A stretch of 64,000 nucleotides of DNA from Patescibacteria group bacterium (lineage in GTDB: Bacteria > Patescibacteriota > Minisyncoccia > UBA6257 > 2-01-FULL-56-20): positions 64,172 through 128,171 of the forward strand of contig JANLHI010000032.1 of assembly GCA_024654525.1 (NCBI GenBank), read 5' to 3'. Shown piece by piece: positions 2,701 to 61,855 of this stretch (position 1 is the first letter of the stretch; each line of letters opens with the position of its first letter). Under the pieces are notes generated by a model, which saw only the letters and a program-made list of their open reading frames with translations, searched no databases and was not told the DNA's origin. The position numbers and the translations under genes were made by a program.

Positions 2701-4347
2701 ATGGTGGCGAAGAAAAATGTACTTCCAAAGTTTATTTTTGTAGTCGGGGGAGTAATGTCTTCGGTCGGGAAAGGGGTCACCGCCGCTTCTATTGGCAAAA
2801 TATTACAAGCACGGGGGTATCGCACCGCGAATATCAAAGCGGATATGTATGTAAATATGGATGCAGGGACGATTCGTCCCGCAGAACACGGAGAGGTGTT
2901 TGTGGGAGAGGATGGTATTGAAGCGGATCAGGACTTAGGGAACTACGAGCGATTTACCGATCAGATCTCTACCCGTGAAAATTACATTACAACAGGACAG
3001 GTGTACGCGGAAGTTATTAGAAAGGAGAGAAATTTGGAATATGAGGGCGAGGATGTTGAGGTATACCCCGATATTCCCAAGGAAATAATAAGACGCATCG
3101 TGTCTTGTCAGAAGAAAAATAATGCGGAGATTACCGTTGTTGAATATGGAGGGACGGTTGGGGAATACCAACTCTTTCCGTTTCTTGAGGCTACGCGGAT
3201 GATGAAGTCAAAAAATCCTGAGGATGTGTGTGTAGTTTTAGTCAGTTATTTGCCTACACCCGCACTGCTTGGAGAACAGAAATCGAAACCCACGCAGCGT
3301 GCGGTTAATGATCTTCATTCGGTGGGGCTTAATCCTGATTTTGTAATTTGCCGCGCCGAGCGTCCCGCGACTTCAGATATTAAGCGGACTATCAGTAACG
3401 TGTGTAGTTTGCCGGTTGATCGAATTATCTCCGCACCGGATGTGTACTCGATATATGATGTTCCGGTGAGCTTTGAAAAAGAAAAATTGAGCGACACATT
3501 ACTCTTTACTCTTGGGCTCGCACCTAAGACAAAAAATTTAAAAGAGTGGACTGCTCTTTCGAAAAAAATAAAGAGGGCGAAAAAAGAAGTGGTCATCGGC
3601 GTGGTAGGGAAGTATTTTAATTTCAAGTCAGTAAAGGATACCTATATTTCCGTGATTGAATCCATCAATCATGCCGTGTGGCAGTTAGGGAAAAAGCCCA
3701 AAATGTTATGGCTGGACTCGGAACGATATGAGCGTGATCCCAAACTTCTCAAGGAATTAGATAATGTGCAGGGTATTGTGGTGCCTGGCGGATTTGGTTC
3801 TCGCGGTGTTGAAGGAATAATTGCAGTAATTAAGTATGCACGGGAGAAAAAAATTCCTTATTTCGGACTTTGTTATGGTATGCAGCTTGCAACTGTGGAA
3901 TTTGCACGACATGTGGCACGGCTTGAGGGTGCAAACACGACAGAGATAAATCCCAAAACCCCACATCCGGTGATTGACTTTATGGTGGAACAGAAGGCAA
4001 ATGTAACCGAAAAAAAATACGGAGGCACAATGCGTTTGGGCGCATATCCCGCATCTCTTAAAAAAGGCACAATTGCACGCGAGGCATACGGCGTACCGCG
4101 AATATCCGAAAGGCATCGCCACCGTTACGAAGTAAACCCGAAATATATTGAACGCATGGAAAAGAAGGGACTGGTATTTTCCGGCATTTCTCCCGACCGA
4201 CGGCTTATGGAAATCGTGGAACTTCCTAAAGATAAACACCCGTTCTTTGTAGGAGTACAGTTTCATCCGGAATTCAAAAGTAGACCTTTAAAGCCCCATC
4301 CTTTGTTCCGTGAGTTTATTAAAGCAACGCTCAAACAATCCAAATAA
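2701..4347 (+). CDS. pyrG: CTP synthase
   Basis: N-terminus FIFVVGGVMSSVGKGVTAAS matches the CTP synthase P-loop. C-terminal glutamine amidotransferase motifs GLCYGMQ and HPEF are present. Confidence 0.9.
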   Translation: MVAKKNVLPKFIFVVGGVMSSVGKGVTAASIGKILQARGYRTANIKADMYVNMDAGTIRPAEHGEVFVGEDGIEADQDLGNYERFTDQISTRENYITTGQVYAEVIRKERNLEYEGEDVEVYPDIPKEIIRRIVSCQKKNNAEITVVEYGGTVGEYQLFPFLEATRMMKSKNPEDVCVVLVSYLPTPALLGEQKSKPTQRAVNDLHSVGLNPDFVICRAERPATSDIKRTISNVCSLPVDRIISAPDVYSIYDVPVSFEKEKLSDTLLFTLGLAPKTKNLKEWTALSKKIKRAKKEVVIGVVGKYFNFKSVKDTYISVIESINHAVWQLGKKPKMLWLDSERYERDPKLLKELDNVQGIVVPGGFGSRGVEGIIAVIKYAREKKIPYFGLCYGMQLATVEFARHVARLEGANTTEINPKTPHPVIDFMVEQKANVTEKKYGGTMRLGAYPASLKKGTIAREAYGVPRISERHRHRYEVNPKYIERMEKKGLVFSGISPDRRLMEIVELPKDKHPFFVGVQFHPEFKSRPLKPHPLFREFIKATLKQSK

Positions 4348-4453
4348 TAAAGTTTAAATTAATGTTTAAAGTTCTAAATCTAAAATAAATCATTTTGATA
4401 TTTAGATTTTGGATTTAATCTCTCATTTAGACTTTGAAATTTAAACTTATTAC

Positions 4454-5236
4454 ATGATTATATTTCTCCATGGGCCTGATGATTACCGACGCACAAAAGA
4501 GAAGAGTGCGATAATAGAAAAGTTTTTGCATAAACATTCTGCGGTGGGGTTTCGCGTGTTTGATTGTGCCGAAGAGGATTCATTTGTTTTTCTGAGTGAA
4601 TTTGCGAAGAGCTCCGGGCTTTTTAATACGCAACGGCTTGCGGTGCTCGAGTCCGCGTGGGAGGCGCCCGAGAAAGAATTGAAAGAATGGCTTTCTGCGG
4701 TTCAGAGTGTAAAACACATAACTGCACTTATTTCCGAACATGATACACCAAAAAAAGAATTCGCATTTTTAAAAAAGAAACCGGTTATTATAAAGGAGTT
4801 TAATGTGCTTCAAGGTACTGCATGGGAGAAATTCATCCTTGCAGAAGCGAAAAGCAGAGGCGTGTTACTTGCGGCGGACGCGGTGAAATTTTTTGCACAA
4901 ATATATAGAGGAGACAGTTGGAGACTTGCAACAGAGCTTGATAAGGTGGCGTTGTTTGCCGGCGGGAGTGTGAGTTTGTGTGATCTTGAACGGTTGGGGT
5001 TGGAAATCCCTCTCGACTCCTTCTCTCTTATTCGGAAGTTTGGAGTGCCGGATAAGAAAGTTCGCCTTGCGACACTTGAAGAATTGTTTCTTACTCGCAA
5101 TCCTGCGGCGAAGATTTTCAATATTCTTTCTGCATTCGCTCCCGCCCGCGCCGCGCAATTCGCGGAGTATGACTACGCAATAAAAAACGGAAAGCTTGAT
5201 TATGAGGAGGCGCTTACGGATTTGGCGCTTTCGTAG
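4454..5236 (+). CDS. DNA polymerase III delta subunit (HolA)-like protein, short form
   Basis: 260-aa ORF. N-terminal MIIFLHGPDDY and overall helical composition resemble HolA. Assignment is tentative. Confidence 0.4.
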   Translation: MIIFLHGPDDYRRTKEKSAIIEKFLHKHSAVGFRVFDCAEEDSFVFLSEFAKSSGLFNTQRLAVLESAWEAPEKELKEWLSAVQSVKHITALISEHDTPKKEFAFLKKKPVIIKEFNVLQGTAWEKFILAEAKSRGVLLAADAVKFFAQIYRGDSWRLATELDKVALFAGGSVSLCDLERLGLEIPLDSFSLIRKFGVPDKKVRLATLEELFLTRNPAAKIFNILSAFAPARAAQFAEYDYAIKNGKLDYEEALTDLALS

Positions 5237-5302
5237 TATTTCCACCTCTTATGTTATGTAGATTTGCAGTAATGCTGGAAATTAGGAGGTTGTCCGACTG
5301 CT

Positions 5303-5338
5303 CCCAATGGAACAATTCTATAGAATTGTTCCATTGGG
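5303..5338. repeat. 36-bp perfect palindrome CCCAATGGAACAATTC-TATA-GAATTGTTCCATTGGG between convergent genes
   Basis: 16-bp perfect inverted arms seen directly. Followed by an A-run, not a T-run, on the + strand. Confidence 0.7.
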
Positions 5339-5422
5339 AAAATAAAACAAGCTCGGCGCGTATGCGCGGAGCTTGTTTCTTGTTTGATTCAGCCGTTTCG
5401 TTGCCGGTAATGTGTTCGCGCG

Positions 5423-5887
5423 TCACACGATCGCACTTGAGCGTCGGCGGCTTTTCTCGGCGCAACGATATTCGGTTTGGTGGAGAATATCCCAAGTGAT
5501 GGCAATTATAGTGGTAAATGCAATTTCCACAAAGACTTCTTTCGGTGACATGCCGATTTTGAACGCTAATCCCGCCTGTATAAGAGTCGTTCTCTCAAGG
5601 AATTCATCCGTGCCGAAGTTCCAATATCTACCGTCTATTTCCCCCAAGCCATAGGAGCCGATGTGCCGAATCGTTTCTTCTCTCATTGTGGAAACTCTGC
5701 GTCGCACACGCCGGGATAGTTCTTCGCGGAGAGATTGGAGGCTCTTGGGGGGTTCGCCGTTGATGATAATTTTCGGAATGAAGCGAAGAGTCTCTCTGAG
5801 TATCCATCGAATTTCTTTTGACTGGATGTTGGATATGTCCATATTAGTCTTTATTAAGTTGTGAATGTGCGAATCGTTTTTTTCCAA
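5423..5887 (-). CDS. Hypothetical protein (154 aa)
   Basis: ORF with coding-like composition. No recognisable motifs. Confidence 0.4.
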   Translation of the reverse strand: MEKNDSHIHNLIKTNMDISNIQSKEIRWILRETLRFIPKIIINGEPPKSLQSLREELSRRVRRRVSTMREETIRHIGSYGLGEIDGRYWNFGTDEFLERTTLIQAGLAFKIGMSPKEVFVEIAFTTIIAITWDILHQTEYRCAEKSRRRSSAIV

Positions 5888-5991: not shown

Positions 5992-6022
5992 TAGGGGTTC
6001 TTAAAAACAAAAGCTTCCGCGG

Positions 6023-6310
6023 TTAGCGCATGGAGGGCGTTCGCGGTGCCGGCGGAGTTACGAGTTTCGTGGCGAGACGCGATTTGAGGCGGCTTGCTTT
6101 GTTGGAGGCAATGGCATGAGTTTTCGCGGCCTTATCGAGGGATTGATAGATTTTTGAAAGCATCGCTTTTGCTTCTTGTTGCTTCTTTGCGGCGAGGAGT
6201 TTTTTATACTCTTTTATTGCGTCTTTATAGGCGTCTTTTCGTATGATATTGCGCGCTTTTCGGCGGACGCTTTGGCGTAATGCTTTTTTTGCTGAAGAGG
6301 TGATTGGCAT
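6023..6310 (-). CDS. rpsT: 30S ribosomal protein S20
   Basis: Basic 95-aa protein. N-terminus SAKKALRQSVRRKARN is typical of S20. Confidence 0.85.
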   Translation of the reverse strand: MPITSSAKKALRQSVRRKARNIIRKDAYKDAIKEYKKLLAAKKQQEAKAMLSKIYQSLDKAAKTHAIASNKASRLKSRLATKLVTPPAPRTPSMR

Positions 6311-6401
6311 GGACGTAAGATTGTTGTGGAAAAATACTAACTCAATATCATATGCACTGTCAATGTTTTTTTATTGTCTGAAAATAAGATACGATTGAAG
6401 C

Positions 6402-6986
6402 ATGATACACACCCTTGAGGGAGTACTGGAACTGAAAAGTAGCCGTTCCGCGGTGATAAATGTAGGGGGGGTGGGTTTTTCGGTATATTTTCACGATCGA
6501 ACATTGCGAGGGTTGCCACGGATTGGGTCAAAAGTGAAGGTGTTTACGCATCTTAATGTGAAGGAAGATGCGCTTGAGTTGTATGGATTTTTGGATGCGG
6601 GGGATTTAGCGATTTTTAATCTTCTTCACTCTGTATCTGGTGTAGGACCAAAGTCGGCATTGTCCGTATTAGATGTAGCAGAGCATAAGGAGATAGAGGC
6701 GGCTATTAAGGAAAATCGTCCAGATTTACTTTCGCGAGCATCGGGTATAGGAAGAAAGACTGCCGAAAGAATCATTCTTGAACTAAAAAATAAGATAGTG
6801 ATGCGCGGTACGGGTGCGATGGTGGAACATATGGAGTCGGATGCTGATCTTGCGGAAGCGCTTGTGGGGATGGGATATAGTCGTGATGAAGCAAGAATTG
6901 CGATTACAAAGACGGAGGCGCATAACGATCTCGGAGTCCGATTTAGAGAAGCGCTTAAAATATTAGGAAGAAAGAAAACTTTATGA
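6402..6986 (+). CDS. ruvA: Holliday junction DNA helicase RuvA
   Basis: Start MIHTLEGVL. HhH motifs LLHSVSGVGPKSALSVL and ASGIGRKTAERIILEL. C-terminal domain resembles the RuvB-binding domain. No ruvB follows. Confidence 0.85.
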   Translation: MIHTLEGVLELKSSRSAVINVGGVGFSVYFHDRTLRGLPRIGSKVKVFTHLNVKEDALELYGFLDAGDLAIFNLLHSVSGVGPKSALSVLDVAEHKEIEAAIKENRPDLLSRASGIGRKTAERIILELKNKIVMRGTGAMVEHMESDADLAEALVGMGYSRDEARIAITKTEAHNDLGVRFREALKILGRKKTL

Positions 6987-8032
6987 GCTCCATTGTTTTT
7001 GAAGAATTACGAGGGTCAGAACGGTTCCATCCAGAATTGATTACTTCGCACCCTCCCTTCACACAAAGTTATTCATACGGAGAGTGGCAACGCGCGATAG
7101 GGAAAAGGGTGCGACGTTTTGTGGGTATGCGCGGAGAAGAATGTGTGGCAACGCTCCAACTTGTGCAGTATCCCCTCGTGGGAGGTAAAAATTATATATA
7201 TGCTCCTTATGGTCCCGTATTGAAAAACGCGAATGATGGAGAGGTGGTGAAGGCGGTGCGCGATGTGGTTACCGAAGTTACTCACGGCTCTCGTGCGGTA
7301 TTTACGCGTCTTGATTTTTTTCCGATGCTCTACGGAGATGCATTAAGGAGTGCGAACAGTGTATTCCATCATGCACTGAAAGGGACATATCGAGGAACGG
7401 CGTTTCAGCCTCGTGCCGAATGGGAACTCGACCTTTCTCATTCGGAGGACGAGCTTATGCGCGACATGCACCACAATACTCGTTACAGTATTCGGGCGGC
7501 GGCGCGGCGTGAAGTACAAGTGGAAATAATTGGAGCGCAGTTTCTTTCACGGCGATTCGAGGACTTTTTCAAAATCATGCAAGAGACTTCGGCGCGGAAT
7601 GAGTTTAAGCTTCATACCAAGTTGTATTACGAATCTGTATTTCGCATTGCTGGCGAGGAAGGGAATGCATTTCTTGTTCTTGCTCGGTATAACGAGGTCA
7701 TACTTGCCGCTCATTTCATTTTTCTTTTTGGAGGCATAGCTCATTTTGTGTTCGGGGGGTCAAGCACGGAGCATAGGGATTTGTTCGGTTCATATTCCGC
7801 GCAGTGGGCCGCAATTCGCGAAGCAAAAGCTCGAGGCGCGCGTTTCTACAGTTTTGGAGGTGTTTCGGGAGGGAGGAATATGCGGGAGGATTGGGGAGGG
7901 CTTTCGAGTTTTAAGCGCAAATTTGGAGGAAATATTTTTTCGCATGGAGAATTTTATGATGTTGTTGCCAGTCCGGTTTGGTATTATGCGTACGTAGCCA
8001 GAAAATACTTACAGTCACTATGCAAAAAATAA
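6983..8032 (+). CDS. FemAB-family peptidoglycan interpeptide-bridge aminoacyltransferase
   Basis: 349-aa ORF with FemAB-like composition (NYIYAPYGPV, FKRKFGG). Its end overlaps the murE start. Confidence 0.6.
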   Translation: MSSIVFEELRGSERFHPELITSHPPFTQSYSYGEWQRAIGKRVRRFVGMRGEECVATLQLVQYPLVGGKNYIYAPYGPVLKNANDGEVVKAVRDVVTEVTHGSRAVFTRLDFFPMLYGDALRSANSVFHHALKGTYRGTAFQPRAEWELDLSHSEDELMRDMHHNTRYSIRAAARREVQVEIIGAQFLSRRFEDFFKIMQETSARNEFKLHTKLYYESVFRIAGEEGNAFLVLARYNEVILAAHFIFLFGGIAHFVFGGSSTEHRDLFGSYSAQWAAIREAKARGARFYSFGGVSGGRNMREDWGGLSSFKRKFGGNIFSHGEFYDVVASPVWYYAYVARKYLQSLCKK

Positions 8033-9360
8033 AAAAGACGCTTCGTCGCATTATTCCCCAATGGGCACTTTCTCTTTATCACTATGGGATGGCGCGTATC
8101 GCCGAGGTGAGATATGGGTTTCCTTCGCGGAAGATTGTAGTGATTGGCGTGACGGGTACGAAAGGAAAAACCACTGCATCGAATTTTATATGGGCGGTGC
8201 TCACCGCGGGAGGAAAGAAGACGGGATTATTGAGTACTGCGGTAATCCGGATTGGCGATCGGCAAATGATCAATGCATATCACATGACTATGCCCGGGCC
8301 TTTTACGCTTCAGCGTTTTCTCAAAGATATGGTTGACGACGGATGCACTCATTGTGTGATCGAAACTACTTCCCAAGGATTGGCGCAGTGGAGACATGTG
8401 GGCATTTGGTATGACGTTGCGGTGTTTACCAATCTTGCGCCACGGGGAACTACCGAACATGTAGAAGCACACGGTTCTCTTGAAGCGTATCGAGCGGCAA
8501 AAGGAAGATTATTTTCCGCGCTCATGCATCATCCGCAAAAAACTATCGAAGGGGAGCTAGTACCGCGCATAGCGCTGGTAAATAACGATTCGGATCATAA
8601 GGATTTTTTTGCGCGATTTCCTGTCGAGCATGTAGCAACATTCGGGACTGAACCGGGCGCAGATTATATTGCCGAGAATATCACTACGGATACGCAAGGG
8701 GTTTTTTTTCACGTACATAATAAGCAGTACGTGCTTGCAATGCTCGGTGAATTCAATGTAATGAATGCGTTGCCTGCAGTTGCGCTTGGAGATATATTGG
8801 GAATTTCTTCGGATCGTATCGCGCAAGGACTTGTCTCATTCTCTTTTATTCCCGGGAGGATGGAGATTATAAATGAAGGTCAAGAGTTCGGAGTGATTGT
8901 GGATTACGCTCACGAGAAGGTGAGTATGGAAACGCTTCTTGTCGCTGCACGGGGATTCGTGAGGAAGGAAAAAAAATTAATTGTAGTGCTTGGAGCGGAA
9001 GGAGGAGGACGTGATAAGGCGAAGCGTCCCGCGATGGGAGAGCTTGCGGGAAAACTTGCGGATTATGTGGTGGTGTCAAACGTTGATCCTTACGATGATG
9101 ATCCGAAAGAAATAGCAGAAGATATTGCGTGCGCAGTGGAAAATGCCGGAAAAATACGTGAGACAACGTTGTTTGTCATTGAAGACCGACGTGAAGGAAT
9201 TCGGAAGGCGCTTGAAATTGCGAACAGAGGAGACCTTGTGCTTGTCACGGGAAAGGGAGCGGAGCAATCCATGATTTTTAAAGAAAAGACCATGTTGTGG
9301 GATGATCGCATGGTAGTGAGAGAAGAACTACATGATATGGAAAACAACAAAAAGATGTAG
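8020..9360 (+). CDS. murE: UDP-N-acetylmuramoyl-tripeptide (Mur) ligase, MurE-like
   Basis: Mur ligase P-loop IGVTGTKGKTTASNFI. Central and C-terminal Mur ligase domains present. Start chosen at the internal Met (MQKIKK) to avoid a 55-nt overlap with the upstream gene. Confidence 0.8.
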   Translation: MQKIKKTLRRIIPQWALSLYHYGMARIAEVRYGFPSRKIVVIGVTGTKGKTTASNFIWAVLTAGGKKTGLLSTAVIRIGDRQMINAYHMTMPGPFTLQRFLKDMVDDGCTHCVIETTSQGLAQWRHVGIWYDVAVFTNLAPRGTTEHVEAHGSLEAYRAAKGRLFSALMHHPQKTIEGELVPRIALVNNDSDHKDFFARFPVEHVATFGTEPGADYIAENITTDTQGVFFHVHNKQYVLAMLGEFNVMNALPAVALGDILGISSDRIAQGLVSFSFIPGRMEIINEGQEFGVIVDYAHEKVSMETLLVAARGFVRKEKKLIVVLGAEGGGRDKAKRPAMGELAGKLADYVVVSNVDPYDDDPKEIAEDIACAVENAGKIRETTLFVIEDRREGIRKALEIANRGDLVLVTGKGAEQSMIFKEKTMLWDDRMVVREELHDMENNKKM

Positions 9361-9394
9361 AATGAAAGAACAGTATTAGGCGGGAATATTTTTT

Positions 9395-10798
9395 ATGAAA
9401 CTTACTTTTCATGGCGGGGCGGGATCGGTCACGGGGGCGAATTACTTGCTTGAAGTGGGGAGTCGGGAGCAAGGAGGAAGGAAAATCCTTGTTGACTGCG
9501 GGTTGCAACAAAGCGGGTATTACGCGGAAGGGGAGAATTTTAACGCGTTTCCGTATAATCCTCGGGATATATCCGATGTGCTTATTACTCATGCACACAT
9601 CGATCACATCGGACGTATCCCGAAACTAGTGAGGGATGGATTTCGAGGGATTATACATTCGACTCCGCCGACAAAAGATTTTGCGGAATTTCTTCTTCTT
9701 GATTCCGAACATATTCTTGCGAAAGAAGCAGAGAGAGAAAGGAAAGCTCCGCTTTACGGTACCTCTGATGTGGAAAGAGCAATGGAACAATGGCAGGGAA
9801 CGCCATATCATAAAGAAATTGAATTTGGTTCTGTAAAGTTTCGCGATGAGCGAAATCACGGAGCGGGGTCTGTGCGGGCGATGTTTTTTGATGCGGGGCA
9901 TGTGCTTGGTTCTTCCATTGTGCGTATTGAGGCTGAAGGAAAGACTGTTTTATTTTCGGGGGATTTGGGAAATTCTCCTCCACCCATCATACGTTCTACG
10001 GAAAAAATGGAGATGGCAGATTACTGCCTAATCGAATCCACGTATGGAGATCGCATTCATGAAAATGTCGGGTCGCGAAGAGAGATGCTTGAAGATGCAG
10101 TAGAAGAAACAGTGAAAGATGGGGGCGTTCTTATGATCCCCGCTTTTGCGCTCGAGCGAACGCAAGAATTGCTTTATCACCTCCACGAACTTTTTGAGCA
10201 AGGGCGTGTGCCAAAGATTCCGGTTTTTTTGGATAGTCCTCTCGCAATCAAACTTACGGAAGTCTACAGGAAATATGATTCATATTTCAACAATGATATG
10301 CAACGATTGGTTCGTTCCGGAGATGATTTTCTGAATTTTTCGGGATTAAGACTCACGCTTACCACCGAACAATCCAAAGATATTAACAAAGTGCCGTCGC
10401 CGAAAATAATTATTGCAGGTTCGGGCATGTCCCATGGAGGGAGGATACTTCATCACGAACGCCGTTATCTTTCCGATCCGAAAAACGCCATTCTTTTTGT
10501 GGGATATCAAGCGAGGGGGTCGCTCGGGCGAGCCATTATGGAAGGTGCGAACACTGTCCGTATTTTTGGAGAAGATGTTTCGGTACGTGCTAAAAAAATT
10601 AACATAGCGGGGTATTCCGCACATGCGGATCAGCCCCAGCTTATGAATTGGTTGCGCCCTATGAGAAAAACGCTCAAAAAGGTGTTCGTAGTACAAGGAG
10701 AAGATAGTGCAAGCGAGACACTTGCGACTAAAATTAGAGATGAGTTTGCAATAATGGCGGTAGTACCTAAGAAAGGAGAGAGTTTTGAGCTAGTGTAG
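9395..10798 (+). CDS. MBL-fold beta-CASP family ribonuclease (COG1236-like)
   Basis: Metallo-beta-lactamase motif ITHAHIDHIGRIP. Downstream beta-CASP motifs GYSAHAD and the D/H residues. Confidence 0.75.
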   Translation: MKLTFHGGAGSVTGANYLLEVGSREQGGRKILVDCGLQQSGYYAEGENFNAFPYNPRDISDVLITHAHIDHIGRIPKLVRDGFRGIIHSTPPTKDFAEFLLLDSEHILAKEAERERKAPLYGTSDVERAMEQWQGTPYHKEIEFGSVKFRDERNHGAGSVRAMFFDAGHVLGSSIVRIEAEGKTVLFSGDLGNSPPPIIRSTEKMEMADYCLIESTYGDRIHENVGSRREMLEDAVEETVKDGGVLMIPAFALERTQELLYHLHELFEQGRVPKIPVFLDSPLAIKLTEVYRKYDSYFNNDMQRLVRSGDDFLNFSGLRLTLTTEQSKDINKVPSPKIIIAGSGMSHGGRILHHERRYLSDPKNAILFVGYQARGSLGRAIMEGANTVRIFGEDVSVRAKKINIAGYSAHADQPQLMNWLRPMRKTLKKVFVVQGEDSASETLATKIRDEFAIMAVVPKKGESFELV

Positions 10799-13073: not shown

Positions 13074-13150
13074 GCGCCCGTAGCCCCGGCGCAAGGTCGG
13101 GGTCCCGACCCGAAGGCGTCGGGATTCAACGAGTTGTTTGGTAGGAAGCT
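13074..13150 (+). pseudogene. tRNA-like fragment (pseudo-tRNA) immediately upstream of tRNA-Arg
   Basis: Shares GCGCCCGTAG (acceptor 5' strand and positions 8-10) and a CCGAAGG anticodon-loop-like segment with the adjacent tRNA-Arg. Lacks a complementary 3' acceptor strand. Confidence 0.45.
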
Positions 13151-13225
13151 GCGCCCGTAGTTCAACGGATAGAATACATCCCTCCGAAGGATGATATCGA
13201 GGTTCAATTCCTCGCGGGCGCACCA
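13151..13225 (+). tRNA. tRNA-Arg (anticodon CCG)
   Basis: Cloverleaf by hand: acceptor GCGCCCG/CGGGCGC, anticodon stem CATCC/GGATG with loop CTCCGAA, T-arm GAGGTTCAATTCCTC, encoded CCA. Confidence 0.85.
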
Positions 13226-13520
13226 GTAAGGAAATTGCAAGTTTTGAAGGTTCGCCTCGCTTCGCTCGGCGACTGATTCGTATTGGATTTTCGGGGCAAA
13301 AACGAATTGGCGATTTTGAAAGAAGAAAAGAAATTTTTTTAATCGTTGGATTCATAAGATTTAAGTCATAAAACAGCAGAGATGTTGGTTTTTTGTTTGG
13401 CTTGACATATAGACCATAATATGCTATCCCTAATAGCATCGGAATCATGGTAGAAACCTTGAAAATCCGGTAACCCAGCCACGAGGGCTTCGTGGTAATC
13501 CAGTTCCTTGAGGAGGAAAA

Positions 13521-25401: not shown

Positions 25402-25750
25402 GGGGATGATCGGCTTTGATGGAGCTGGAATGCATACCTGCGAGCCGAGTGTGAATCTCGCAAACTTCACAAACCTATTAACTGACAACTCAAAAGTTGC
25501 AGCTCCGGCATTCGCCTACGCGTAATGCTGCTTGCTCGCCAAAACTTTAGTGGCGGCGGGGAGGATCGTGCCATCGGTGTCTCTTCGGTGAATCACGGTC
25601 TTATATAAGGAGGCTCGTCTCATAGTGGTTACTCTGTGCCCTATGGGATTAAAGTACATGGAGTATTCGTACTACTTTGTAGCACTACGCTCGTAGAGGG
25701 TATGTGTCACCCAGTTTCAGACGAGGGTTCAATTCCCTCCATCTCCACCA
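25402..25750 (+). ncRNA. ssrA: tmRNA (ssrA)
   Basis: 5' GGGGATG pairs with 3' CATCTCCACCA. tRNA-like T-arm GAGGGTTCAATTCCCTC. Internal tag ORF GCA AAC TTC ... GCC TAC GCG TAA. Length about 349 nt. Confidence 0.85.
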
Positions 25751-29545: not shown

Positions 29546-31300
29546 ATGGAAAAGAGGTCGTGCCAGCATTGCAAAGAACAATTTATGGTTGATGCCGCGG
29601 ATCGGAATTTTTATGCGCGTCTTGATGTTCCGCCACCGATATTGTGCCCCACGTGCAGGATGATACGGCGGCAACTTTTTCGGAACGAACGCGCACTTTA
29701 TAAGCGTGCGTGTGATTTGTGTAAAAAAAGCGTGGTGAGTATGTATGCGCCCGATTCGCCCTACATTGTCTATTGTGTTGAGTGTTACCAATCGGACAAG
29801 TGGGATTCGATGAGTTACGGGAAAGAATATGATTTTTCGCGCCCGTTTTTTGAGCAGTTCAACGAGCTGATGCATGTGGTGCCGCGACGGGCGCTCTATA
29901 TTGATTTCGCGACAGCGAGTGACTATACGAATTGGGGTGTGAATTTAAAAAATTGCTATCTCGTGTTCGGCGGGCACCATTACGAGGACTGCAACTATTC
30001 GAGTCAAAGTTTCTATCTCACCGATTGTACGGACGTGGATTTTTGCCAGCGGAGCGAATCGTGTTACGGCTCGGTGCATCTCCGGCACTGCAGTCGTGTG
30101 CGATTCAGTTCGTTCTCCGAGGATTGTTCGGATTCGTGGTTCTTGTATGGATGTCGCAATTGCCAGAATTGTATAGGATGTACCAACTTGCGGAATGTGT
30201 CGTGCCATATTTTCAATGTCCGTTACTCAAAAGAAGAGTATGAAGCAAAAGTCAAAGAATTTTGTCTTGATACCGAAGAAGGGCTTATGCGCGTGCGCAA
30301 TAAGTTTTCACAACACACATTACAGTTTCCGCGGAAGTTTGCATGGGTACGGAATGCGACGGGATCGACCGGGGATGACCTTGATAATGTGAAAGATTGT
30401 GTCCGGTGTTTTTCCGCAACGGAGGTGGAGAATTGCCGATACTCGTTCTTTATCCCTACGCAGGCGAAAGACAGTTATGACATTGACCATGTGGGGATGA
30501 GCGCGCAACTCACGCTTGAGCTCGTAAGCGGGTTTGGGACGGAGCGCGTAGCGTTTAGCAACCGCGTGTATTACACGCATGATGCCTATTATTGCGATGA
30601 CTGTTATAACTCTGCAAACCTTTTTGGATGCGTAGGACTCAAGAAAAAAGAGTATTGTATTTTGAATAAGCAGTATTCCAAGGATGAGTATGAAAAGATG
30701 AGAATGAAAATTATTGAACACATGACGCGCACGGGGGAATACGGCTTGTTTTTCCCGCCGGAACTTTCTCCTTTTACCTATAAAGAAACAGTTGCGCAGG
30801 AATACTTTACCCTCACTAAAGAGGAGGCCAGCGCGCAGGGATTTCGCTGGAAAGATTCCGAAAAAAAGCAGTATGAGCCGACCATTCATGTGGGGGATAT
30901 TCCTGCGGGCATCGGGGATGCAAAGGATTCACTCACGGGAGAAATTTTTGAGTGTTTTCATAAAGGGGGATGCAATGAACAATGCACAGAAGCGTTCCGG
31001 ATTATCCCGCAGGAGCTTCAGTTTTTGCGAAAGCTTGGAATTTCATTGCCGCGTCTTTGTCCGAATTGTCGGCACTATGAACGATTACGAATGCGAAACC
31101 CAATGAAATTATGGCGCCGTATGTGCCAGTGTACTCGCACGAATCAAGAATCAGGAAGCGAGAATCAAGCCAGATATCAGAATACCGTCACTCATTTCCA
31201 TGGAGGCGTCCCATGCCCGAATGAATTTGAAACCTCCTACGCGCCGGATAGGAAAGAGATAGTATATTGTGAAAATTGCTATCAATCCGAAGTTGTATGA
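29546..31300 (+). CDS. Cysteine-rich 584-aa protein with paired zinc-ribbon modules at both termini and a Cys-repeat core
   Basis: N-terminal CQHC...CPTC and CDLC...CVECYQSD. C-terminal CFHKGGC...CPNC and YAPDRKEIVYCENCYQSE. The two terminal modules look like duplicates of each other. The middle region has Cys every 10-13 residues. Confidence 0.6.
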   Translation: MEKRSCQHCKEQFMVDAADRNFYARLDVPPPILCPTCRMIRRQLFRNERALYKRACDLCKKSVVSMYAPDSPYIVYCVECYQSDKWDSMSYGKEYDFSRPFFEQFNELMHVVPRRALYIDFATASDYTNWGVNLKNCYLVFGGHHYEDCNYSSQSFYLTDCTDVDFCQRSESCYGSVHLRHCSRVRFSSFSEDCSDSWFLYGCRNCQNCIGCTNLRNVSCHIFNVRYSKEEYEAKVKEFCLDTEEGLMRVRNKFSQHTLQFPRKFAWVRNATGSTGDDLDNVKDCVRCFSATEVENCRYSFFIPTQAKDSYDIDHVGMSAQLTLELVSGFGTERVAFSNRVYYTHDAYYCDDCYNSANLFGCVGLKKKEYCILNKQYSKDEYEKMRMKIIEHMTRTGEYGLFFPPELSPFTYKETVAQEYFTLTKEEASAQGFRWKDSEKKQYEPTIHVGDIPAGIGDAKDSLTGEIFECFHKGGCNEQCTEAFRIIPQELQFLRKLGISLPRLCPNCRHYERLRMRNPMKLWRRMCQCTRTNQESGSENQARYQNTVTHFHGGVPCPNEFETSYAPDRKEIVYCENCYQSEVV

Positions 31301-31595: not shown

Positions 31596-32057
31596 ATGAA
31601 AAAACCAACTGTTAGAATTGTTGTTATGGGCGGATCGATGGAGGGAAATGTGGAAGGGCTCTCTGCGTTGAACGCAGATGAATCACTTGTGGAGCAGTTT
31701 TGTGTCAGAACCAATGTCGCGAAACGTCTCGGACTAGAATTGGAATTTTCCATCATATGCAGGAAAGACAGTGGCGCGATTGAAGACGGCGATCGCGAGA
31801 AGCTGAAGGAGACAATCACTAAAGCAAAAGAATCCAATATTGCCGGAGTACTCGTGGTCCACGGGGAGGACGCGATGGCAAAAACCCTTGCTCATATCCA
31901 AAAAGAGGGGGCTTTACCCCTTCCTGTGGTGTGTGTGAGTTCCAATAGCCCAATCAGTGAGGCGGGTTCGGATGGAGGGTTTGTCCTTGCCCAAGGGTTT
32001 TGCCTCCTCGGGCAGTTTATGGGAAAAGGAGTTCGGGAAGTCGGCTGCGTCGTGTGA
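31596..32057 (+). CDS. Asparaginase/glutaminase N-domain-like protein. Truncated and probably catalytically inactive.
   Basis: Aligns by eye to the asparaginase N-domain (VVHGEDAMAKT cf. ITHGTDTMEET; LPVVCVSSNSPISEAGSDG cf. KPVVMVGAMRP...ADG). The nucleophile motif TGGTIAG reads MGGSMEG here. Only 153 aa. Confidence 0.45.
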   Translation: MKKPTVRIVVMGGSMEGNVEGLSALNADESLVEQFCVRTNVAKRLGLELEFSIICRKDSGAIEDGDREKLKETITKAKESNIAGVLVVHGEDAMAKTLAHIQKEGALPLPVVCVSSNSPISEAGSDGGFVLAQGFCLLGQFMGKGVREVGCVV

Positions 32058-32118: not shown

Positions 32119-32397
32119 GGGAGGGAGGTATAATAAAAGCACTGAAACTTAACATATGAAAAATTCTCGTAGATCTCATAGGGAAATTAACAAGACGGTA
32201 CGAGTATGTAATAGTGTCGTTTTATATTTCAAAATCACAGGAGATAAAAAGGAATGGCGGACATGTCATCGCGCTGCGATACTTGCGGCATTCCGAACTG
32301 CATTCAATGAAGCGGTTCGGTAGCGACCTTTTTTTCTAATAATAACCAGCCTCGTGCATAGTATGCGCGGGGCGCAACTTTTTTAGAGACACAAAAA

Positions 32398-32489
32398 CTA
32401 CTCCGTGCGCCGCATTTCCCGTTCTACGGTGCGTTTTTTTATTACTTCCCGTTTGTCGTGTTTTTTCTTCCCGCGGGCAAGAGTGAGTT
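32398..32489 (-). repeat. Degenerate duplicate of the smpB 3' end (last ~27 codons plus stop). Direct repeat of 33100-33190.
   Basis: About 75% nucleotide identity by eye to the smpB terminus, including ...GAACGGGA[G/A]ATGC...GAGTAG. Confidence 0.7.
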
Positions 32490-32525
32490 ATTTGACTAAA
32501 GTTTATCTTAAGTTAAACTTAGACC

Positions 32526-32744
32526 ATGAAGAACTCGGTGATAGGACTTAAAGAATTGCGGGAGAACGCGGAACATTATATTTCCCGCGTAGGGAAAGGG
32601 GAATCGTTTATCATTATGCGCCGTTCAAAGCCGGTGTTTAAGATTTCTCCTCCGGAGGATGACGAGCTGTGGGAGCGGGTGGTTGATCTCACGAAGATTA
32701 AAAAAGGAGGAGTCCCAATCGCGGAACTTCTTTCCCGGCTCTAG
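32526..32744 (+). CDS. Type II antitoxin, Phd/YefM family
   Basis: VIGLKELRENAEHYISRVGKGESFIIMRRSKPVFKISP fits the Phd/YefM N-terminal fold pattern. 7-nt gap to the downstream toxin gene. Confidence 0.7.
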   Translation: MKNSVIGLKELRENAEHYISRVGKGESFIIMRRSKPVFKISPPEDDELWERVVDLTKIKKGGVPIAELLSRL

Positions 32745-32750
32745 TGTCTC

Positions 32751-32993
32751 ATGGATAAAATAGAGAAAGCGCTTGCGCGGTTGAGTGCCCGCGAGAGGGA
32801 ATGGGTGAAAGATATGCTTTCACGGCTTCGTTCCGGCGAAGTGAAGGGTGCGGACATCAAAAAACTCAAGGGGCGCGATGATATTTTTCGCGCGAGGAAG
32901 GGAGACGTGCGTATTATCTATCATCTGCGAGACGGAACTACTTTTATTCTTGCGATTGAACGAAAGAGCGAGAAGACATATAAAGGGCTTTAG
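32751..32993 (+). CDS. Type II toxin, RelE/ParE family
   Basis: 80 aa. GDVRIIYHLRDGTTFILAIERKSEKTY matches the RelE/ParE C-terminal pattern. Confidence 0.7.
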   Translation: MDKIEKALARLSAREREWVKDMLSRLRSGEVKGADIKKLKGRDDIFRARKGDVRIIYHLRDGTTFILAIERKSEKTYKGL

Positions 32994-33099
32994 GTTGCGT
33001 GGGAGTAAAAACCCATGACCTGCGGCTTTTTTAAGAAAGAGAGAATCTCCTCCGCATTATTCTCCGGCGAGTTGCCGGATTAATTTGCGTTACTTGCGG

Positions 33100-33567
33100 C
33101 TACTCCCTTTGCATCTCCCGTTCTATAGTCCGTTTCTTTATCGCTTGTCGTTTGTCATGTTTCTTTTTCCCTCGGGCAAGGGCGAGTTCTATTTTTATTA
33201 AATTTCCTTTGAGGTGGACATTCAAGGGGATAAGCGATGTTCCTTCGCGGAGGGCTCCTACGAGGTATTTTATTTCGTCTTGAGTAAGAAGAAGTTTGCG
33301 GGTTGTGTCTGCGGTGTAATCGGGAGAAACGTTCATGGGTTGATATGCGGGGATTTGTGAGCCTACAAGGAATACTTCTCCCGCCGCACTTCGCGTACCG
33401 CTACGGCGAGCCGAAGCACGAATAATGGCGCGGCTTCCCGCGAGTCCCATACGTTTCGATTTCACGCTTTTTACCTCGTGTCCCTTGAGTATGATTCCCA
33501 CCTCGAATGTTTCGAGGATATCGTAATCAAATCGAGCGCGTTTGTTTTCTGCGAGTATTACCATGCC
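33100..33567 (-). CDS. smpB: SsrA-binding protein SmpB
   Basis: ENKRARFDYDILETFEVGIILKGHEVKS, TRKLLLTQDEI, ARGKKKHDKR. Start taken at the internal Met (MVILAENK). Confidence 0.85.
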   Translation of the reverse strand, partial: GMVILAENKRARFDYDILETFEVGIILKGHEVKSVKSKRMGLAGSRAIIRASARRSGTRSAAGEVFLVGSQIPAYQPMNVSPDYTADTTRKLLLTQDEIKYLVGALREGTSLIPLNVHLKGNLIKIELALARGKKKHDKRQAIKKRTIEREMQRE

Positions 33568-34160
33568 TGTATCATATTGTTTTATAAGAAGACATTCAAA
33601 CGCACGAACCATATAAAAAATAATGCGCGCAACTTTGAGAGTTGCGCGCATGCCCCTTGCTTTCCATAATGAAACCCTCCAATATTTTTGAATGTTCGAA
33701 GTCCATATTTGCCGCTATGGGCAAATTTGAGGAAAGCACCCTTGCTTCTTTCACCGTAACACACAAGAGTTCGGGGTCAAGGAAAGTTTTTGGTAAAAAA
33801 ATGAGAGCATCGGCTTTCCAATGCTCCCACTCACTTTCGACCAACAAGGCGTGTTATCGCCAGGGGATGGCATTGAAGAGCCTTGTATGATCCCCTTTAT
33901 CTTAAAAAAGAAGAGTCTCTGAGGCAAGTCTACTTCCGTTTCTGTGTTTTCTGCGTTATTCTTCAAAAAGAAAAAGGGCGGGGGCTGGTACGTGTTAAAC
34001 CAGACACCCCGCCTTGACGAGAAATTGTTTTTACTTCTTATTAGGAAAAAGTCAAGTGACAGTGGTATTTTTTTATATTGAATTCTCAGGCTCTATCACC
34101 CCCTTCCTTATTTAAGGATTGGATTGTACCACTGTCACTCTTGGGTTTTACTCTATCACT

Positions 34161-35812: not shown

Positions 35813-38800
35813 ATGACTGAAGATTTTTCAAAAGGAGAATTTAAATTATCGGAAGGGGATTTCGTCCTCCCGAAGGCGGAAGAGAGTATCCTTGCGTTTT
35901 GGGAGAGTAAGGAAATTTTTGCGAAATCTCTCGAAAAAACAAAAAATGGGAAGCCCTTCACATTCTATGATGGACCTCCGTTTGCAACGGGAACTCCCCA
36001 TTATGGGAGTCTGTTGAGTTCCATTATTAAAGATGTAGTGGGGAGGTATCAGACCATGAAGGGGCGATATGTACGTCGCCGATGGGGTTGGGATTGTCAT
36101 GGATTACCGATTGAAGAAATCGTTGAACGGGAGCTTGGTATTTCGGGGAAGAAGCAAATAGAAGAGCTTGGTATCGAAAAGTTCAATCAGACGTGTCGTA
36201 CTATGGTATTGCAGTATGTTGTTGAATGGAAAAAGATGATTCGTCGTATTGCGCGATGGGTGGATTTTGATAATTCATACAAGACGATGGATCGGGATTT
36301 TATGGAATCCGTATGGTGGGCGTTTAAACAGATGTACGACAAGAATCTTATCTACGAAGGGAGAAAAGTCCTTCTCTATTGTCCGCGGTGCGAGACACCG
36401 GTATCAAACTTTGAAGTGGCGATGGACAACTCGTATAAGGAAGTCACTGAAGAGGCCGTGACGGTGAAATTCAAAGTGAAGCCTGGGCAGAAAATAGGGA
36501 AGTGGGAAGTGCAGGAGCATACCTACTTTATTGCATGGACTACAACTCCATGGACGCTCCCTGGTCATGCGGCTCTCTATGTTTCAGAAACTATGGAATA
36601 CGTACGAGTAAAGCAGGGAAACGAATTTTATATTGTGGCAAAGGCTTTGCTGGAGAATATCTTTAAGGGAATATATGAAGTTTCGGAGGATATCAAGGCA
36701 AAAGATTTAGTTGGCCTTTCTTATACGCCACCGTTTGAGGTTCCCGTAATGGCTTCGCCACAGTCATTTAAGGTGTGGGTTGGAGATTTTGTTACTGCTG
36801 ATGCGGGCACCGGTGTGGTACATAGTGCGGTTGTGCATGGAGAAGAGGATTACCAGCATGGCATAAAATCGGGATTACCCACCGTTTTACTTCTTGATGA
36901 AAAGGGTCACTTCAACGAGAAGGCGCCGGAGCTTGTGCGCGGGCAGTACTTCAAAAAGGCGGACAAGATTATCATTCAAGACCTTGAAACGCGAGGACTG
37001 CTTTTTGCAAAAGCGCCGCATGCGCATTCATACCCTCACTGCTGGCGTTGCGCTACCGCGCTCTTTTATAACGCCATCCCCGCGTGGTTTGTGAATATAC
37101 AAAAAATCAAACCGGAGCTTTTGAAATCAAACGAGAAGGAAATAAATTGGTTTCCCGCGCATCTGAAATTCGGAAGGTATGCGAACAGTGTGTCGCAAGC
37201 TCCCGATTGGAATATTTCTCGGAACCGCTACTGGGGAAATCCCATTCCCGTATGGAAGTGTGAATCGTGCGGGGAAAATACGGTAGTAGGAAGCATTCAC
37301 GAGTTGGGATTAGGAACAAATACGCTTTATGGTGCACGGCATGGACTTGCGGAGAGTAATATCCGCACAATTCACAGCGGATACATGGAGAACGACCCGA
37401 TTGATCTTGTGGAAAAAGGCGTGCAGCAGGCAGAGGAGATGGCGAAACATTTGAAGAAGGGTGGGGGAGTCGATTTGATTGTGTCGTCTGACGTACGACG
37501 TACGAAGCATACTGCAGAAATTGTCGCGAAGATTCTGGGATGTCCCGTAGAATATGATGCGCGTTTACGTGAATGGAATTTGGGTATATGGAATGGCAAG
37601 CCGTGTGAAGGACTGCATCACAAACTTCCTTTTGAGAAGCGATGGACAGAGGCGCCCGAAGGAGGAGAGACGTGGACAGACCTTCAAGCGCGGATGGTGG
37701 AGGCGGTAAAAGATATTAATCAAAAACATAAAAATACGCGAATACTTATTATTAGTCATGGGGATCCGCTGTGGCTTGTGCGGAAATACTTTGGTGCGGA
37801 GACTGGATATCCGGGAGTTGGCGAGGTATTCTCGCTTAACGTCGATATTGACGACCTTCATCGTCCGGGAATTGATGCGGTAACGCTTCCATGTAAATGC
37901 GGTGGCACTGCGCGACGCATTAAAGAGATTTTTGATTCATGGATGGAGGCGGGTTCAATGCCTTTTGCTGAATATCATTATCCTTTTGAGCAAAAGGATT
38001 TATTCGAATCGCGCCTTCCGGCGCAGTTTGTTGCGGAGTATATTCCACAGACGCGTGCATGGTTTTATGTGATGCATGTCACGTCGCTCATTCTTTTTGG
38101 GAAGGCGCCCTTCGAGAATGTGGTAACTACCGGTACCGTGCTTGCCGAGGATGGTGCAAAAATGAGCAAATCAAAACGAAATTATCCTGATCCGTGGGAA
38201 GTGATTGAGCGTTACGGTTCCGATTCTCTTCGATTTTATCTTATGCATTCGCCGGTGATGCAAGCGGAGGATTTAAATTTTAGCGCGCGCGAACTCGAGG
38301 GGCTTCACCGGAAAATTGTGCTCATTTTGTCGAATGTGGAAAAATATTTTGTAACGTACGCAAGGGAGTCAGATTTCAGATATCAGATTTCAGATCTCGG
38401 ACAAGAATCCGAAAATATACTGGATCAATGGATTGTTGCGCGAACAAAAGAATTGGTAAGCGGCGTGACGGAATATATGGATGTCTACGACACCGTGCGT
38501 GCGACACGGATTATTGAAGAATATATCTCTGATCTTTCTACGTGGTATGTACGTCGGAGTAGGGGGAGGAGGGATGAGGTATTTTTTAGAACATTATGCG
38601 ATACGCTTCTTACGACAAGTAAAGTGATTGCGCCTTTCATGCCCTATCTTGCGGAGCATATCTATCACTCGACTCGTGAATTTAGCGGGGTTTTGGAAGA
38701 GTCAGTGCATCTTGTCGATTGGCCGAAAGGGAAAAAACTTACAAAAGACGAGGAGGCGTTGCTTCGTGATATGGTGCTGGTGCGCGATCTTGCGAGTAAA

Positions 38801-39250
38801 GCGCTTGCAGTGAGGAAAACGGCGGGGATTCCCATTCGACAGCCGCTCGCGACGCTGCGAATTAGAAATGGGAACATCGGGAATGATAAAAACAGAATAG
38901 ATTTTATGTGGATATTAGTGGAGGAGTTGAATGTGAAGGAGATTAAAATCGACTCATCTATTTCCGAGGATGTGATGTTTGATACGGTAATCACTCCGGA
39001 ATTAAAAATCGCAGGTTTCGTGCGCGGACTTGAGCGTAGTATTCAAGGGTTGAGAAAAACACAAGGATTTAACGTGGGAGAGGAGGCCGTGCTTTTTTAT
39101 GAAACCGCTGATGTGGATTTGGAGTCTGCGATAAAGCAGGTTGATATAAAGAAAACTTATATTAAGAGTATTAAACGTGCTCAAAAAGAAAATGCTTTAA
39201 AGCACACGTTTGAGGGTAAAGAAATAGGAATTATCCTCGAAAAAGTGTAA
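35813..39250 (+). CDS. ileS: Isoleucyl-tRNA synthetase (type 2) with an in-frame histidine-phosphatase domain insertion
   Basis: PPFATGTPHYGS (HIGH), KMSKS, CP1 editing-domain motifs. At 1145 aa it is about 180 aa longer than expected. Confidence 0.85.
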   Translation: MTEDFSKGEFKLSEGDFVLPKAEESILAFWESKEIFAKSLEKTKNGKPFTFYDGPPFATGTPHYGSLLSSIIKDVVGRYQTMKGRYVRRRWGWDCHGLPIEEIVERELGISGKKQIEELGIEKFNQTCRTMVLQYVVEWKKMIRRIARWVDFDNSYKTMDRDFMESVWWAFKQMYDKNLIYEGRKVLLYCPRCETPVSNFEVAMDNSYKEVTEEAVTVKFKVKPGQKIGKWEVQEHTYFIAWTTTPWTLPGHAALYVSETMEYVRVKQGNEFYIVAKALLENIFKGIYEVSEDIKAKDLVGLSYTPPFEVPVMASPQSFKVWVGDFVTADAGTGVVHSAVVHGEEDYQHGIKSGLPTVLLLDEKGHFNEKAPELVRGQYFKKADKIIIQDLETRGLLFAKAPHAHSYPHCWRCATALFYNAIPAWFVNIQKIKPELLKSNEKEINWFPAHLKFGRYANSVSQAPDWNISRNRYWGNPIPVWKCESCGENTVVGSIHELGLGTNTLYGARHGLAESNIRTIHSGYMENDPIDLVEKGVQQAEEMAKHLKKGGGVDLIVSSDVRRTKHTAEIVAKILGCPVEYDARLREWNLGIWNGKPCEGLHHKLPFEKRWTEAPEGGETWTDLQARMVEAVKDINQKHKNTRILIISHGDPLWLVRKYFGAETGYPGVGEVFSLNVDIDDLHRPGIDAVTLPCKCGGTARRIKEIFDSWMEAGSMPFAEYHYPFEQKDLFESRLPAQFVAEYIPQTRAWFYVMHVTSLILFGKAPFENVVTTGTVLAEDGAKMSKSKRNYPDPWEVIERYGSDSLRFYLMHSPVMQAEDLNFSARELEGLHRKIVLILSNVEKYFVTYARESDFRYQISDLGQESENILDQWIVARTKELVSGVTEYMDVYDTVRATRIIEEYISDLSTWYVRRSRGRRDEVFFRTLCDTLLTTSKVIAPFMPYLAEHIYHSTREFSGVLEESVHLVDWPKGKKLTKDEEALLRDMVLVRDLASKALAVRKTAGIPIRQPLATLRIRNGNIGNDKNRIDFMWILVEELNVKEIKIDSSISEDVMFDTVITPELKIAGFVRGLERSIQGLRKTQGFNVGEEAVLFYETADVDLESAIKQVDIKKTYIKSIKRAQKENALKHTFEGKEIGIILEKV
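37314..37851 (+). other. Histidine phosphatase (PGAM/SixA-like) domain embedded in IleRS between WKCESCGE...SIHELGLG and DLHRPGID...CKCGG
   Basis: LYGARHGLAESN (RHG motif), VSSDVRRTKHTAEIV (second Arg), ILIISHGDPL (catalytic His). The flanking IleRS zinc-knuckle halves are otherwise contiguous in type-2 IleRS. Confidence 0.75.
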
Positions 39251-61763: not shown

Positions 61764-61855
61764 TTCGTGCGAATGAAACGAATAATGCTAATAGGATCGA
61801 TTCGCATAATTTGTAGCATTCGCATGTATTCGTTGATTAGCATTTCATAACGACA

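Follow-up and report, generated by a model that had tools for sequence, protein, structure and literature searches.

The 64,000-nt stretch of contig JANLHI010000032.1 analysed here (the window; coordinates are positions in it unless a locus is named) comes from a metagenome-assembled genome (MAG) of a Patescibacteria member resembling Candidatus Liptonbacteria. The source proteins carry the label 'Patescibacteria group bacterium', and the best matches of SmpB in GTDB genomes are Liptonbacteria MAGs. The window contains smpB, the gene for the SsrA-binding protein, followed downstream by a second copy of its 3' end. Between the two copies lies a toxin-antitoxin (TA) cassette with a Phd/YefM-type antitoxin and a RelE-type toxin. 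The features are collected in Table 1, and loci and proteins used for comparison are given by L and P numbers.

We read SmpB as a protein of 154 aa that starts with the ATG at 33564; in the source record it has 183 aa and starts at 33651. Relatives begin at the MxxLAENK position. Over its whole length the protein matches Pfam PF01668 (134 bits, 3.6e-39), NF003843 (138.9 bits, above 130) and TIGR00086 (125.4 bits, above 119.1). The basic C-terminal tail, located after the beta-barrel, carries the motif GKKKxDKR, which is present in both copies of the gene end. This tail is needed for the function of SmpB (PMC4131195).

A second copy of the last 28-29 codons of smpB, with the stop codon, lies 699 bp downstream and keeps both orientation and frame. 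The copy in use is termed here tail P (proximal) and the downstream one tail D (distal). The ungapped core of the repeat (32412-32489 against 33111-33188) spans 78 nt with 81% identity at an offset of 699, equal to 233 codons, and one 3-nt indel extends the similarity to both TAG stops (32398-32400 and 33100-33102). When 33095-33200 was searched with blastn against the window, tail D was returned with an E of 4.6e-16 and the next best match with an E of 2.5. This confirms the first claim of an earlier reading made from the sequence only (the sequence-only reading), a diverged duplication of ~90 nt of the smpB end in the same orientation. The repeat is the longest local direct repeat in the window, and the only sizeable one. 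The longest identical run between the copies is 10 nt, with no identical core.

Tail D is intact but untranslatable, with an in-frame TAA before it and the -35 box of the cassette 2 nt away. A hidden Markov model (HMM) of the SmpB tail, built from ~150 tails, was searched against ~160 smpB loci, taken from genomes and metagenomes and translated in six frames. It scored tail D (E 1.3e-14) slightly above tail P, and found no second strong tail at any other of the ~160 loci. Two further matches, one of 15 nt (32275-32289 and 33086-33100) and one of 32 nt (32391-32422 and 33365-33396), were judged to be due to chance.

A degenerate second tail-like stretch, GRLYFHKRSAIKKRDVDRE, was seen in the Berkelbacteria locus L042 (3621-3695; also in L139 and L140), 458 bp past the smpB stop. 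The interval leading to it has two repeats resembling miniature inverted-repeat transposable elements and no gene. As a second case it was rejected as too weak, with an E of 1.4e-4 in the local search and of 0.03 over the whole set of loci.

The 610 bp between the tails hold two open reading frames (ORFs) only, the antitoxin and the toxin, both on the plus strand, in agreement with the sequence-only reading. The antitoxin comes first and ends 6 nt before the toxin start. Its assignment is borderline, with 29.8 bits for PF02604 (PhdYeFM), exactly the Pfam cut-off, and 22.1 bits for TIGR01552 (above 20.8); both libraries agree. As for the toxin, it reaches by itself only 18.2 bits against PF05016 (ParE_toxin), under the cut-off of 23. 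Its homologues (n=189) are mostly from Patescibacteria, and 25 of 29 sampled family members do match PF05016 (E <= 0.01; best 2.4e-7). Searched against the PDB, the family profile finds RelE3, aRelE and E. coli RelE.

The AlphaFold model of the toxin (pLDDT 82.5) has the elements H-H-E-E-E-E. Its best fold match in the PDB is M. jannaschii RelE (TM 0.74, rmsd 1.6 A), with T. thermophilus and M. tuberculosis RelE next and ParE structures far lower in rank. The modelled fold is that of RelE, and the toxin family is RelE-like as well. Residues R71 and Y77, 6 residues apart, are invariant in the 29 members, and we take them to be equivalent to R81 and Y87 of E. coli RelE, the catalytic Arg and Tyr. 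No exact match to the toxin or antitoxin of the window was found in the assembly index, although the source proteins are present in the protein collection (P0001, P0121).

In terms of expression signals, the promoter elements at 32492-32519 are TTGACT and TAAACT, separated by 16 nt, and a palindrome, GTTTATCTTAAGTTAAAC, overlaps the -10 box. A -35 box and a palindrome over the -10 box are conserved in the corresponding position in 8 cassettes of different contexts and genomes. The antitoxin ATG stands only 6 nt past the -10 box, and the cassette mRNA is therefore probably leaderless. The operon terminator is putative, since the stability of its hairpin is not significant (z -1.05) and the assignment was made from its position and the U-run.

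The antitoxin-toxin order, the 6-nt gap, the palindromic operator, the RelE fold and the C-terminal Arg and Tyr are those of type II RelBE and Phd/YefM modules. The toxin differs from typical RelBE in being short (80 aa), nearest to archaeal-type RelE and under the Pfam cut-off. We regard the pair as a Phd/YefM-RelE module of the ordinary sort, from a family that is common in Patescibacteria. As predicted for such a type II module, the antitoxin should repress its own promoter at the palindromic operator, and the toxin should be a ribosome-dependent mRNA endonuclease neutralised by the antitoxin.

Table 1. Features at the 3' end of smpB, with positions in the window
Feature	Position	Strand	Basis and remarks
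Convergent small ORF of 55 aa, marker of the native left flank	32156..32323	+	C-terminus resembles the 82-aa ORF after smpB in L175
Flank between tail D and the next gene	32324..32397	.	Hairpin and T-run at 32349-32373 (+); unlike the L175 post-stop spacer
Tail D (distal), intact but untranslatable SmpB tail, LTLARGKKKHDKREVIKKRTVEREMRRTE + TAG	32398..32489	-	Alignment; tail HMM 55.0 bits
Cassette promoter/operator	32492..32525	+	Promoter scan; conserved in 8 cassettes
Phd/YefM-type antitoxin, 72 aa	32526..32744	+	PF02604, TIGR01552
RelE-type toxin, 80 aa	32751..32993	+	Family matches, profile, AlphaFold model
Putative TA operon terminator, hairpin then T6 just past the toxin stop	32986..33033	+	Fold
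smpB post-stop spacer	33028..33099	-	Homologous to the 60 nt after the L175 smpB stop
Tail P (proximal), in-use SmpB C-terminus, LALARGKKKHDKRQAIKKRTIEREMQRE + TAG	33100..33190	-	Alignment; tail HMM 51.9 bits
smpB (SsrA-binding protein), 154 aa from the ATG at 33564	33100..33564	-	Pfam and NCBIfam

The two tails differ at 15 of 75 nt (25 alignable codons), with 11 third-position and 4 amino-acid changes. The proportions of synonymous (pS) and non-synonymous (pN) differences are 0.64 and 0.07, and dN/dS is ~0.05. When one copy was mutated at random, so few amino-acid changes together with no stop appeared in 1.5e-4 of trials. This pattern argues that the tails diverged under purifying selection, as working SmpB ends in separate lineages, and that at least one of them was imported.

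The simplest source of a direct repeat would be duplication of the tail in place, such as a tandem event spanning the cassette, after which the unused copy decayed; the two copies are indeed equal in extent. If most changes had fallen on a neutral distal copy, ~9 of 12 should be non-synonymous. With the unused copy decaying and the used copy changing only silently, the observed differences have a p of ~0.003-0.03, a rough estimate. Tail D is free of stops and frameshifts, and polarisation assigns the changes to the copy in use, not to the unused one. Given this polarisation and the third-position bias, duplication in place is very improbable.

An assembly chimera of two co-occurring strains could be suspected because the source is a MAG and several related assemblies break in or beside smpB or the cassette. 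The junctions have no long shared identical k-mer, the repeat is 81% identical rather than nearly identical, and the contig is 193 kb long with normal synteny on both sides. We hold a chimera to be very improbable as well. The repeat also differs from a transposon-type target-site duplication: it is ~90 nt long with 81% identity and divergence of the coding type, and comes with no transposase. No inverted repeat with arms at both ends of the insert was found.

The closest SmpB among 5.8 billion proteins is P0122, with 76% identity (locus L175), and a search for closer relatives found none. With the best SmpB only 76% identical, no true empty site or donor is available. In L175 the order is argS, smpB, 204 nt, a small convergent ORF and a gene for a Cys-rich protein; the cassette and a second tail are both missing. 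L001 and L086, also among the four nearest relatives, lack the TA pair and the second tail too. In L002, the fourth, the TA pair lies 1.8 kb off, again with no second tail. The comparison proposed in the sequence-only reading, with related loci that lack the TA pair, thus points to an insertion specific to the lineage of the window.

On the left side, the small convergent ORF and the 82-aa ORF of L175 are weakly similar (tblastn E 0.002, 30% identity over 46 aa). Alignment of the flanks with L001-L004 gave no usable non-coding homology. Within SmpB itself, residues ~50-60 (33385-33420) include an 11-residue insertion, ASARRSGTRSA, in the loop after IIR. It is missing from most relatives, is found in the nearest one (P0122/L175) as AAPRRSGTRSA, and has similar Arg/Ser-rich counterparts in P0127 and P0128.

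L175 also serves to ask which tail is native. Its synonymous divergence from tail D (pS 0.57) is close to that from the smpB body (0.60), while tail P stands at 0.96. Among the 15 differences, 11 sites are informative, and L175 agrees with tail D at 9 and with tail P at 2. All close relatives share DKRE with tail D, where tail P has DKRQ. This fits the distal copy being the displaced native end, in line with the replacement terminus proposed in the sequence-only reading. Along smpB, the synonymous divergence from L175 is 0.32-0.57 in codons 1-76, 0.63-0.79 later and ~1.0 in the tail, a falling similarity that hints at a crossover inside the gene.

The picture is not clean, as the spacer past tail P resembles that of L175. 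Local alignment of the 72 nt past the stop of tail P with the L175 spacer scores 20, against 8.3 +/- 1.3 for shuffles, none of 2000 reaching it. The flank past tail D has no similarity to the L175 post-stop spacer. The spacer consists largely of two copies of the motif AATAAYGCGAAT, present as AAGTAACGCAAAT at 33083-33095 and as AATAATGCGGAG at 33050-33061, with a small hairpin at 33063-33079. The same motif occurs past the stops of other genes (L175 8464-8520, L001 8892-9014, L171 146-182). It follows different genes (smpB, argS, the Cys-rich gene), often as tandem or inverted pairs, and a preceding GAGTAA sometimes supplies or abuts the stop. The window has an inverted pair at 61781-61811 and 13 one-mismatch matches in all, against 4.4 expected. 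The motif may be an element like the repetitive extragenic palindromes (REP-like) or a regulatory intergenic one. Because it recurs past stops elsewhere, the spacer appears constrained and recurrent, and a related donor could have it too.

The reverse polarity would make tail P and its spacer native. A foreign insert would then have entered ~70 nt past the smpB stop, with tail D as a passenger fragment of a foreign smpB at its far end; or the cassette would have taken the place of the body of a second smpB, of which tail D is all that is left. The homology of the spacer past P to that of L175 extends to ~33028, where the TA terminator begins, as this arrangement would have it, and the cassette family usually sits immediately beyond the 3' terminus of a convergent gene. 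The reverse polarity would need a donor with the cassette promoter abutting codon -30 of smpB, that is, a disrupted gene or the same structure, and a tandem or second smpB was not seen in the ~160 loci. The synonymous states common to L175 and tail D are absent from tail P, and the similarity of the spacer rests largely on the recurrent, constrained motif. We consider the reverse polarity doubtful. The coding and the spacer evidence disagree; with the former weighted somewhat higher, the distal end is about twice as likely as the proximal one to be native.

Outside the window, the cassette family was found in at least 8 other contexts, none of them with an smpB fragment. It follows the genes for an APH-like kinase (L081), GAPDH (L084) and fructose-bisphosphate aldolase (L166-168), and adjoins those for a methyltransferase (L085) and a deaminase (L173/L192). 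In L171/L172 the cassette lies 387 bp downstream of smpB and is co-directional with it (L171 1949-3237). The closest cassette, that of L002, lies 1.8 kb downstream of smpB, convergent with it and beside an IS30-like transposase gene (6001-8668). In both L171 and L002 the smpB-side cassette comes after the conserved argS-smpB pair. One of eight contexts in which the toxin was found is at smpB, above the random expectation with a p of roughly 0.03, itself a rough estimate.

Similarity among the cassettes begins at the -35 box and ends at the toxin stop. For the pair formed by the window and L002, it begins exactly at the promoter element. No att or attC-like conserved site common to the cassettes was found, and no partner element or integron integrase was seen. 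Since the cassettes occur in at least 8 contexts with no piece of smpB, the tail would be a flank of the donor rather than part of the mobile unit.

In seven of eight distinct contexts the cassette points with its toxin end towards the 3' end of a convergent gene, 21-270 bp off (window 32986-33100; L081, L084, L166-168, L171, L002). Such a position disturbs no promoter. A search for duplicated neighbour-gene termini at the eight other cassettes, at the DNA and protein level, gave none except a 5' duplication in L192. On this contig, which is that of L173 and not from Patescibacteria, the first ~115 codons of a tadA-like deaminase gene are duplicated with ~95% identity. The copies (9211-9565 and 13101-13455) bracket a TA cassette of the same family and an 843-aa repeat protein; the upstream copy has its full length, the downstream one is truncated. 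Gene fragments here bracket the cassette family a second time, with another geometry.

Another explanation is a site-specific integrative element or island that used the smpB tail as attachment site and carried a replacement tail. It would have lost its integrase or always been mobilised in trans, in the manner of a cis-mobilizable element (CIME) or an integron cassette, and the TA pair would be its remainder. The order of replacement end, element and displaced end fits exactly. The cassette begins right where the repeat stops, with 2 nt between the repeat and the -35 box, which is what a minimal circle of ~700 bp would give. Three lineages (window, L002, L171) have the TA family linked to smpB, and the weak second tail downstream of a Berkelbacteria smpB points the same way. 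Against this, no integrase or transposase was found among the ORFs scanned at 22.9-48.4 kb, within ~10 kb of the insert; these encode tRNA synthetases, RNase J, methyltransferases and other products not tied to mobility. The repeat lacks an identical core, the other cassettes share neither an smpB fragment nor any conserved sequence beyond promoter to toxin stop, and the ~160 other smpB loci have no strong second tail. Viral contigs scanned for the toxin family and SmpB had only distant RelE-like genes and, at prophage flanks, full-length smpB, with no tail-only smpB adjoining such a cassette. We therefore regard a site-specific element as unlikely.

According to the sequence-only reading, an element had entered the 3' end of smpB and brought a replacement terminus, and the architecture and the purifying selection on the tails fit this view. 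Its further suggestion of a decayed island or dedicated integrative element finds no match in the scanned ORFs, in an identical core or in the eight other contexts. It had also made its case depend on two points. The first, that the two segments align, stands. The second, that related genomes should not have the TA genes here unless the smpB end is duplicated, does not fully hold, since L002 and L171 carry the pair downstream of smpB with no duplication.

We tentatively prefer, and give a nearly even chance to, a one-off recombination of donor DNA carrying an smpB 3' end and the adjoining cassette, in which homology served at one end and the other was joined illegitimately. The event would have taken place after the split from the nearest sequenced relative, with another Parcubacteria lineage as donor. 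In that donor, a self-contained Phd/YefM-RelE cassette would already have stood ~70-100 nt downstream of smpB and convergent with it; arrangements of this general kind exist in L002 (convergent) and L171 (387 bp past smpB). One end of the incoming DNA would have paired by homology with the resident smpB, leaving the gene with the donor tail P. The other end, at the edge of the -35 box, would have been joined illegitimately to the resident smpB ~30 codons before its stop, where a microhomology of ~4 nt (AAAT) is possible at the join (32489/32492). What remains of the resident gene end, tail D, would be an untranslated relic 699 bp farther downstream.

Homology-facilitated illegitimate recombination, or an equivalent one-ended repair, would serve as the route, making an element-encoded integrase unnecessary. 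Only outcomes with an intact SmpB tail, needed for trans-translation, would survive, and the tidy look of the locus would follow, because the tail is required and only products with a complete one persist.

Several points weigh against a one-off recombination. The join within 2 nt of the -35 box would be a coincidence for a random illegitimate event, and 81% identity with runs of no more than 10 nt makes a poor RecA substrate if the pairing was confined to the tail. A donor with the exact arrangement was not found. The spacer homology, taken at face value, makes the proximal side native, and we discount it only partly. The statistics on polarity are modest, with 9 against 2 sites and ~2.7 sigma on pS. 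A four-taxon site test for a mosaic smpB, with different relatives for its 5' and 3' parts, was not significant and depended on the outgroup.

Among known systems, the prophage-like element e14 (and phage 21) in E. coli icd and ICESt1/ICESt3 in fda are insertions in which the insert supplies a diverged, functional 3' end and the original end is displaced. Like these and other integrative and conjugative elements or islands that enter the 3' end of protein genes, the insert of the window is bracketed by a direct repeat of the target terminus and is absent from the relatives L175, L001 and L086. Elements of the e14/icd type have their own integrase and an identical crossover core, whereas the insert here has neither and carries only 610 bp of cargo; its cassette family, in addition, does not bring a fragment of the target gene elsewhere. 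The structure thus resembles the classical insertions that restore a 3' end, yet differs from them in integrase, identical core and recurrence.

CIMEs, integrase-less elements flanked by att sites and integron cassettes have very small, repeat-bounded cargo and no recombinase, and TA modules are typical of them. The insert is similar in being small, bounded by repeats and loaded with a TA pair, with no recombinase gene, and is unlike them in that its cassette family shares no att or attC-like site. A search of the literature returned no report of smpB as an integration site. Were the site-specific explanation true, smpB would join ssrA as an integration target.

As for the recombination route, homology-facilitated illegitimate recombination is described for naturally competent bacteria and for conjugation in E. 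coli (PMC3240628). It would explain both the donor gene flank arriving together with the cassette and the missing recombinase gene. The anchor, the microhomology and the donor, in the case of the window, are deduced rather than observed. We know of no demonstration of this process in Patescibacteria.

A one-off recombination would bear on how such modules spread. TA cassettes move between genomes and rarely leave a trace of their route, and here the trace is legible. The second end of an essential gene, shaped by selection, suggests that the cassette came with neighbouring donor DNA and that only arrangements with an intact SmpB tail survived. How Patescibacteria of this kind, which cannot be grown, exchange genes is mostly a matter of inference; the locus would provide direct evidence of recombination-based gene flow between their lineages. 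A RelE toxin, which breaks mRNAs, recurs beside the gene of a rescue factor in related lineages, and this suggests a testable, if speculative, functional link.

A stronger version of this link would make the ~700-bp unit of SmpB tail, spacer and RelE cassette an integrase-less mini-element that homes to the coding sequence of SmpB tails, mobilised in trans or by host recombination. Selection would then account for the association with smpB in three Parcubacteria lineages, since mRNAs cleaved by RelE are rescued by tmRNA-SmpB, and the cassette could be lost only through a precise recombination that restores the rescue-factor gene. We see this as a long shot.

With respect to tmRNA, the gene ssrA lies at 25402-25750, 7.35 kb from smpB, so the distance of ~7 kb given in the sequence-only reading is right. 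The GC-rich block that it placed between the two genes is less pronounced than stated: the GC content is 0.50-0.53 against a mean of 0.46, and several other blocks of the window are alike. The ORFs checked between ssrA and smpB are syntenic with relatives. No duplicate of the 3' end of tmRNA or of a tRNA was found anywhere in the window, and there is thus no sign of a tRNA or tmRNA island. Because the checked genes are syntenic and no such end is duplicated, the proximity of ssrA and the mild rise in GC add nothing to the case.

Some smaller features were noted around the locus. Past tail D, the hairpin and T-run at 32349-32373 (+) form a putative terminator, which would terminate the small convergent ORF. 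Inside the region of this ORF, a possible 18-aa Cys-rich peptide, MADMSSRCDTCGIPNCIQ, is encoded at 32255-32311, with GGAG upstream and the same terminator-like hairpin after it. An ORF of 153 aa (31596-32057) matches only the N-terminal domain of asparaginase/GatD. It lies in the variable part of the locus, between smpB and the Cys-rich gene, with no C-terminal half nearby and no counterpart in related loci, and represents either a domain that stands alone or a gene that was truncated.

The large Cys-rich protein (29546-31300, ~590 aa) has CxxC pairs throughout and only a faint treble-clef zinc-finger match. Its gene is kept beside smpB in the clade, with tandem paralogues in relatives (L001 7071-10866; L002 8747-12322). 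In L175, a restriction-modification pair formed by a CfrBI-like endonuclease and an N4/N6 methyltransferase (3212-5478) lies between ileS and argS, genes that adjoin in the window. The isoleucyl-tRNA synthetase of the window (35813-39250) has a histidine-phosphatase domain (His_Phos_1) inserted in the middle of the protein. The same architecture is found in L175, and the similarly long IleS of L002, with 1193 aa, may share it.

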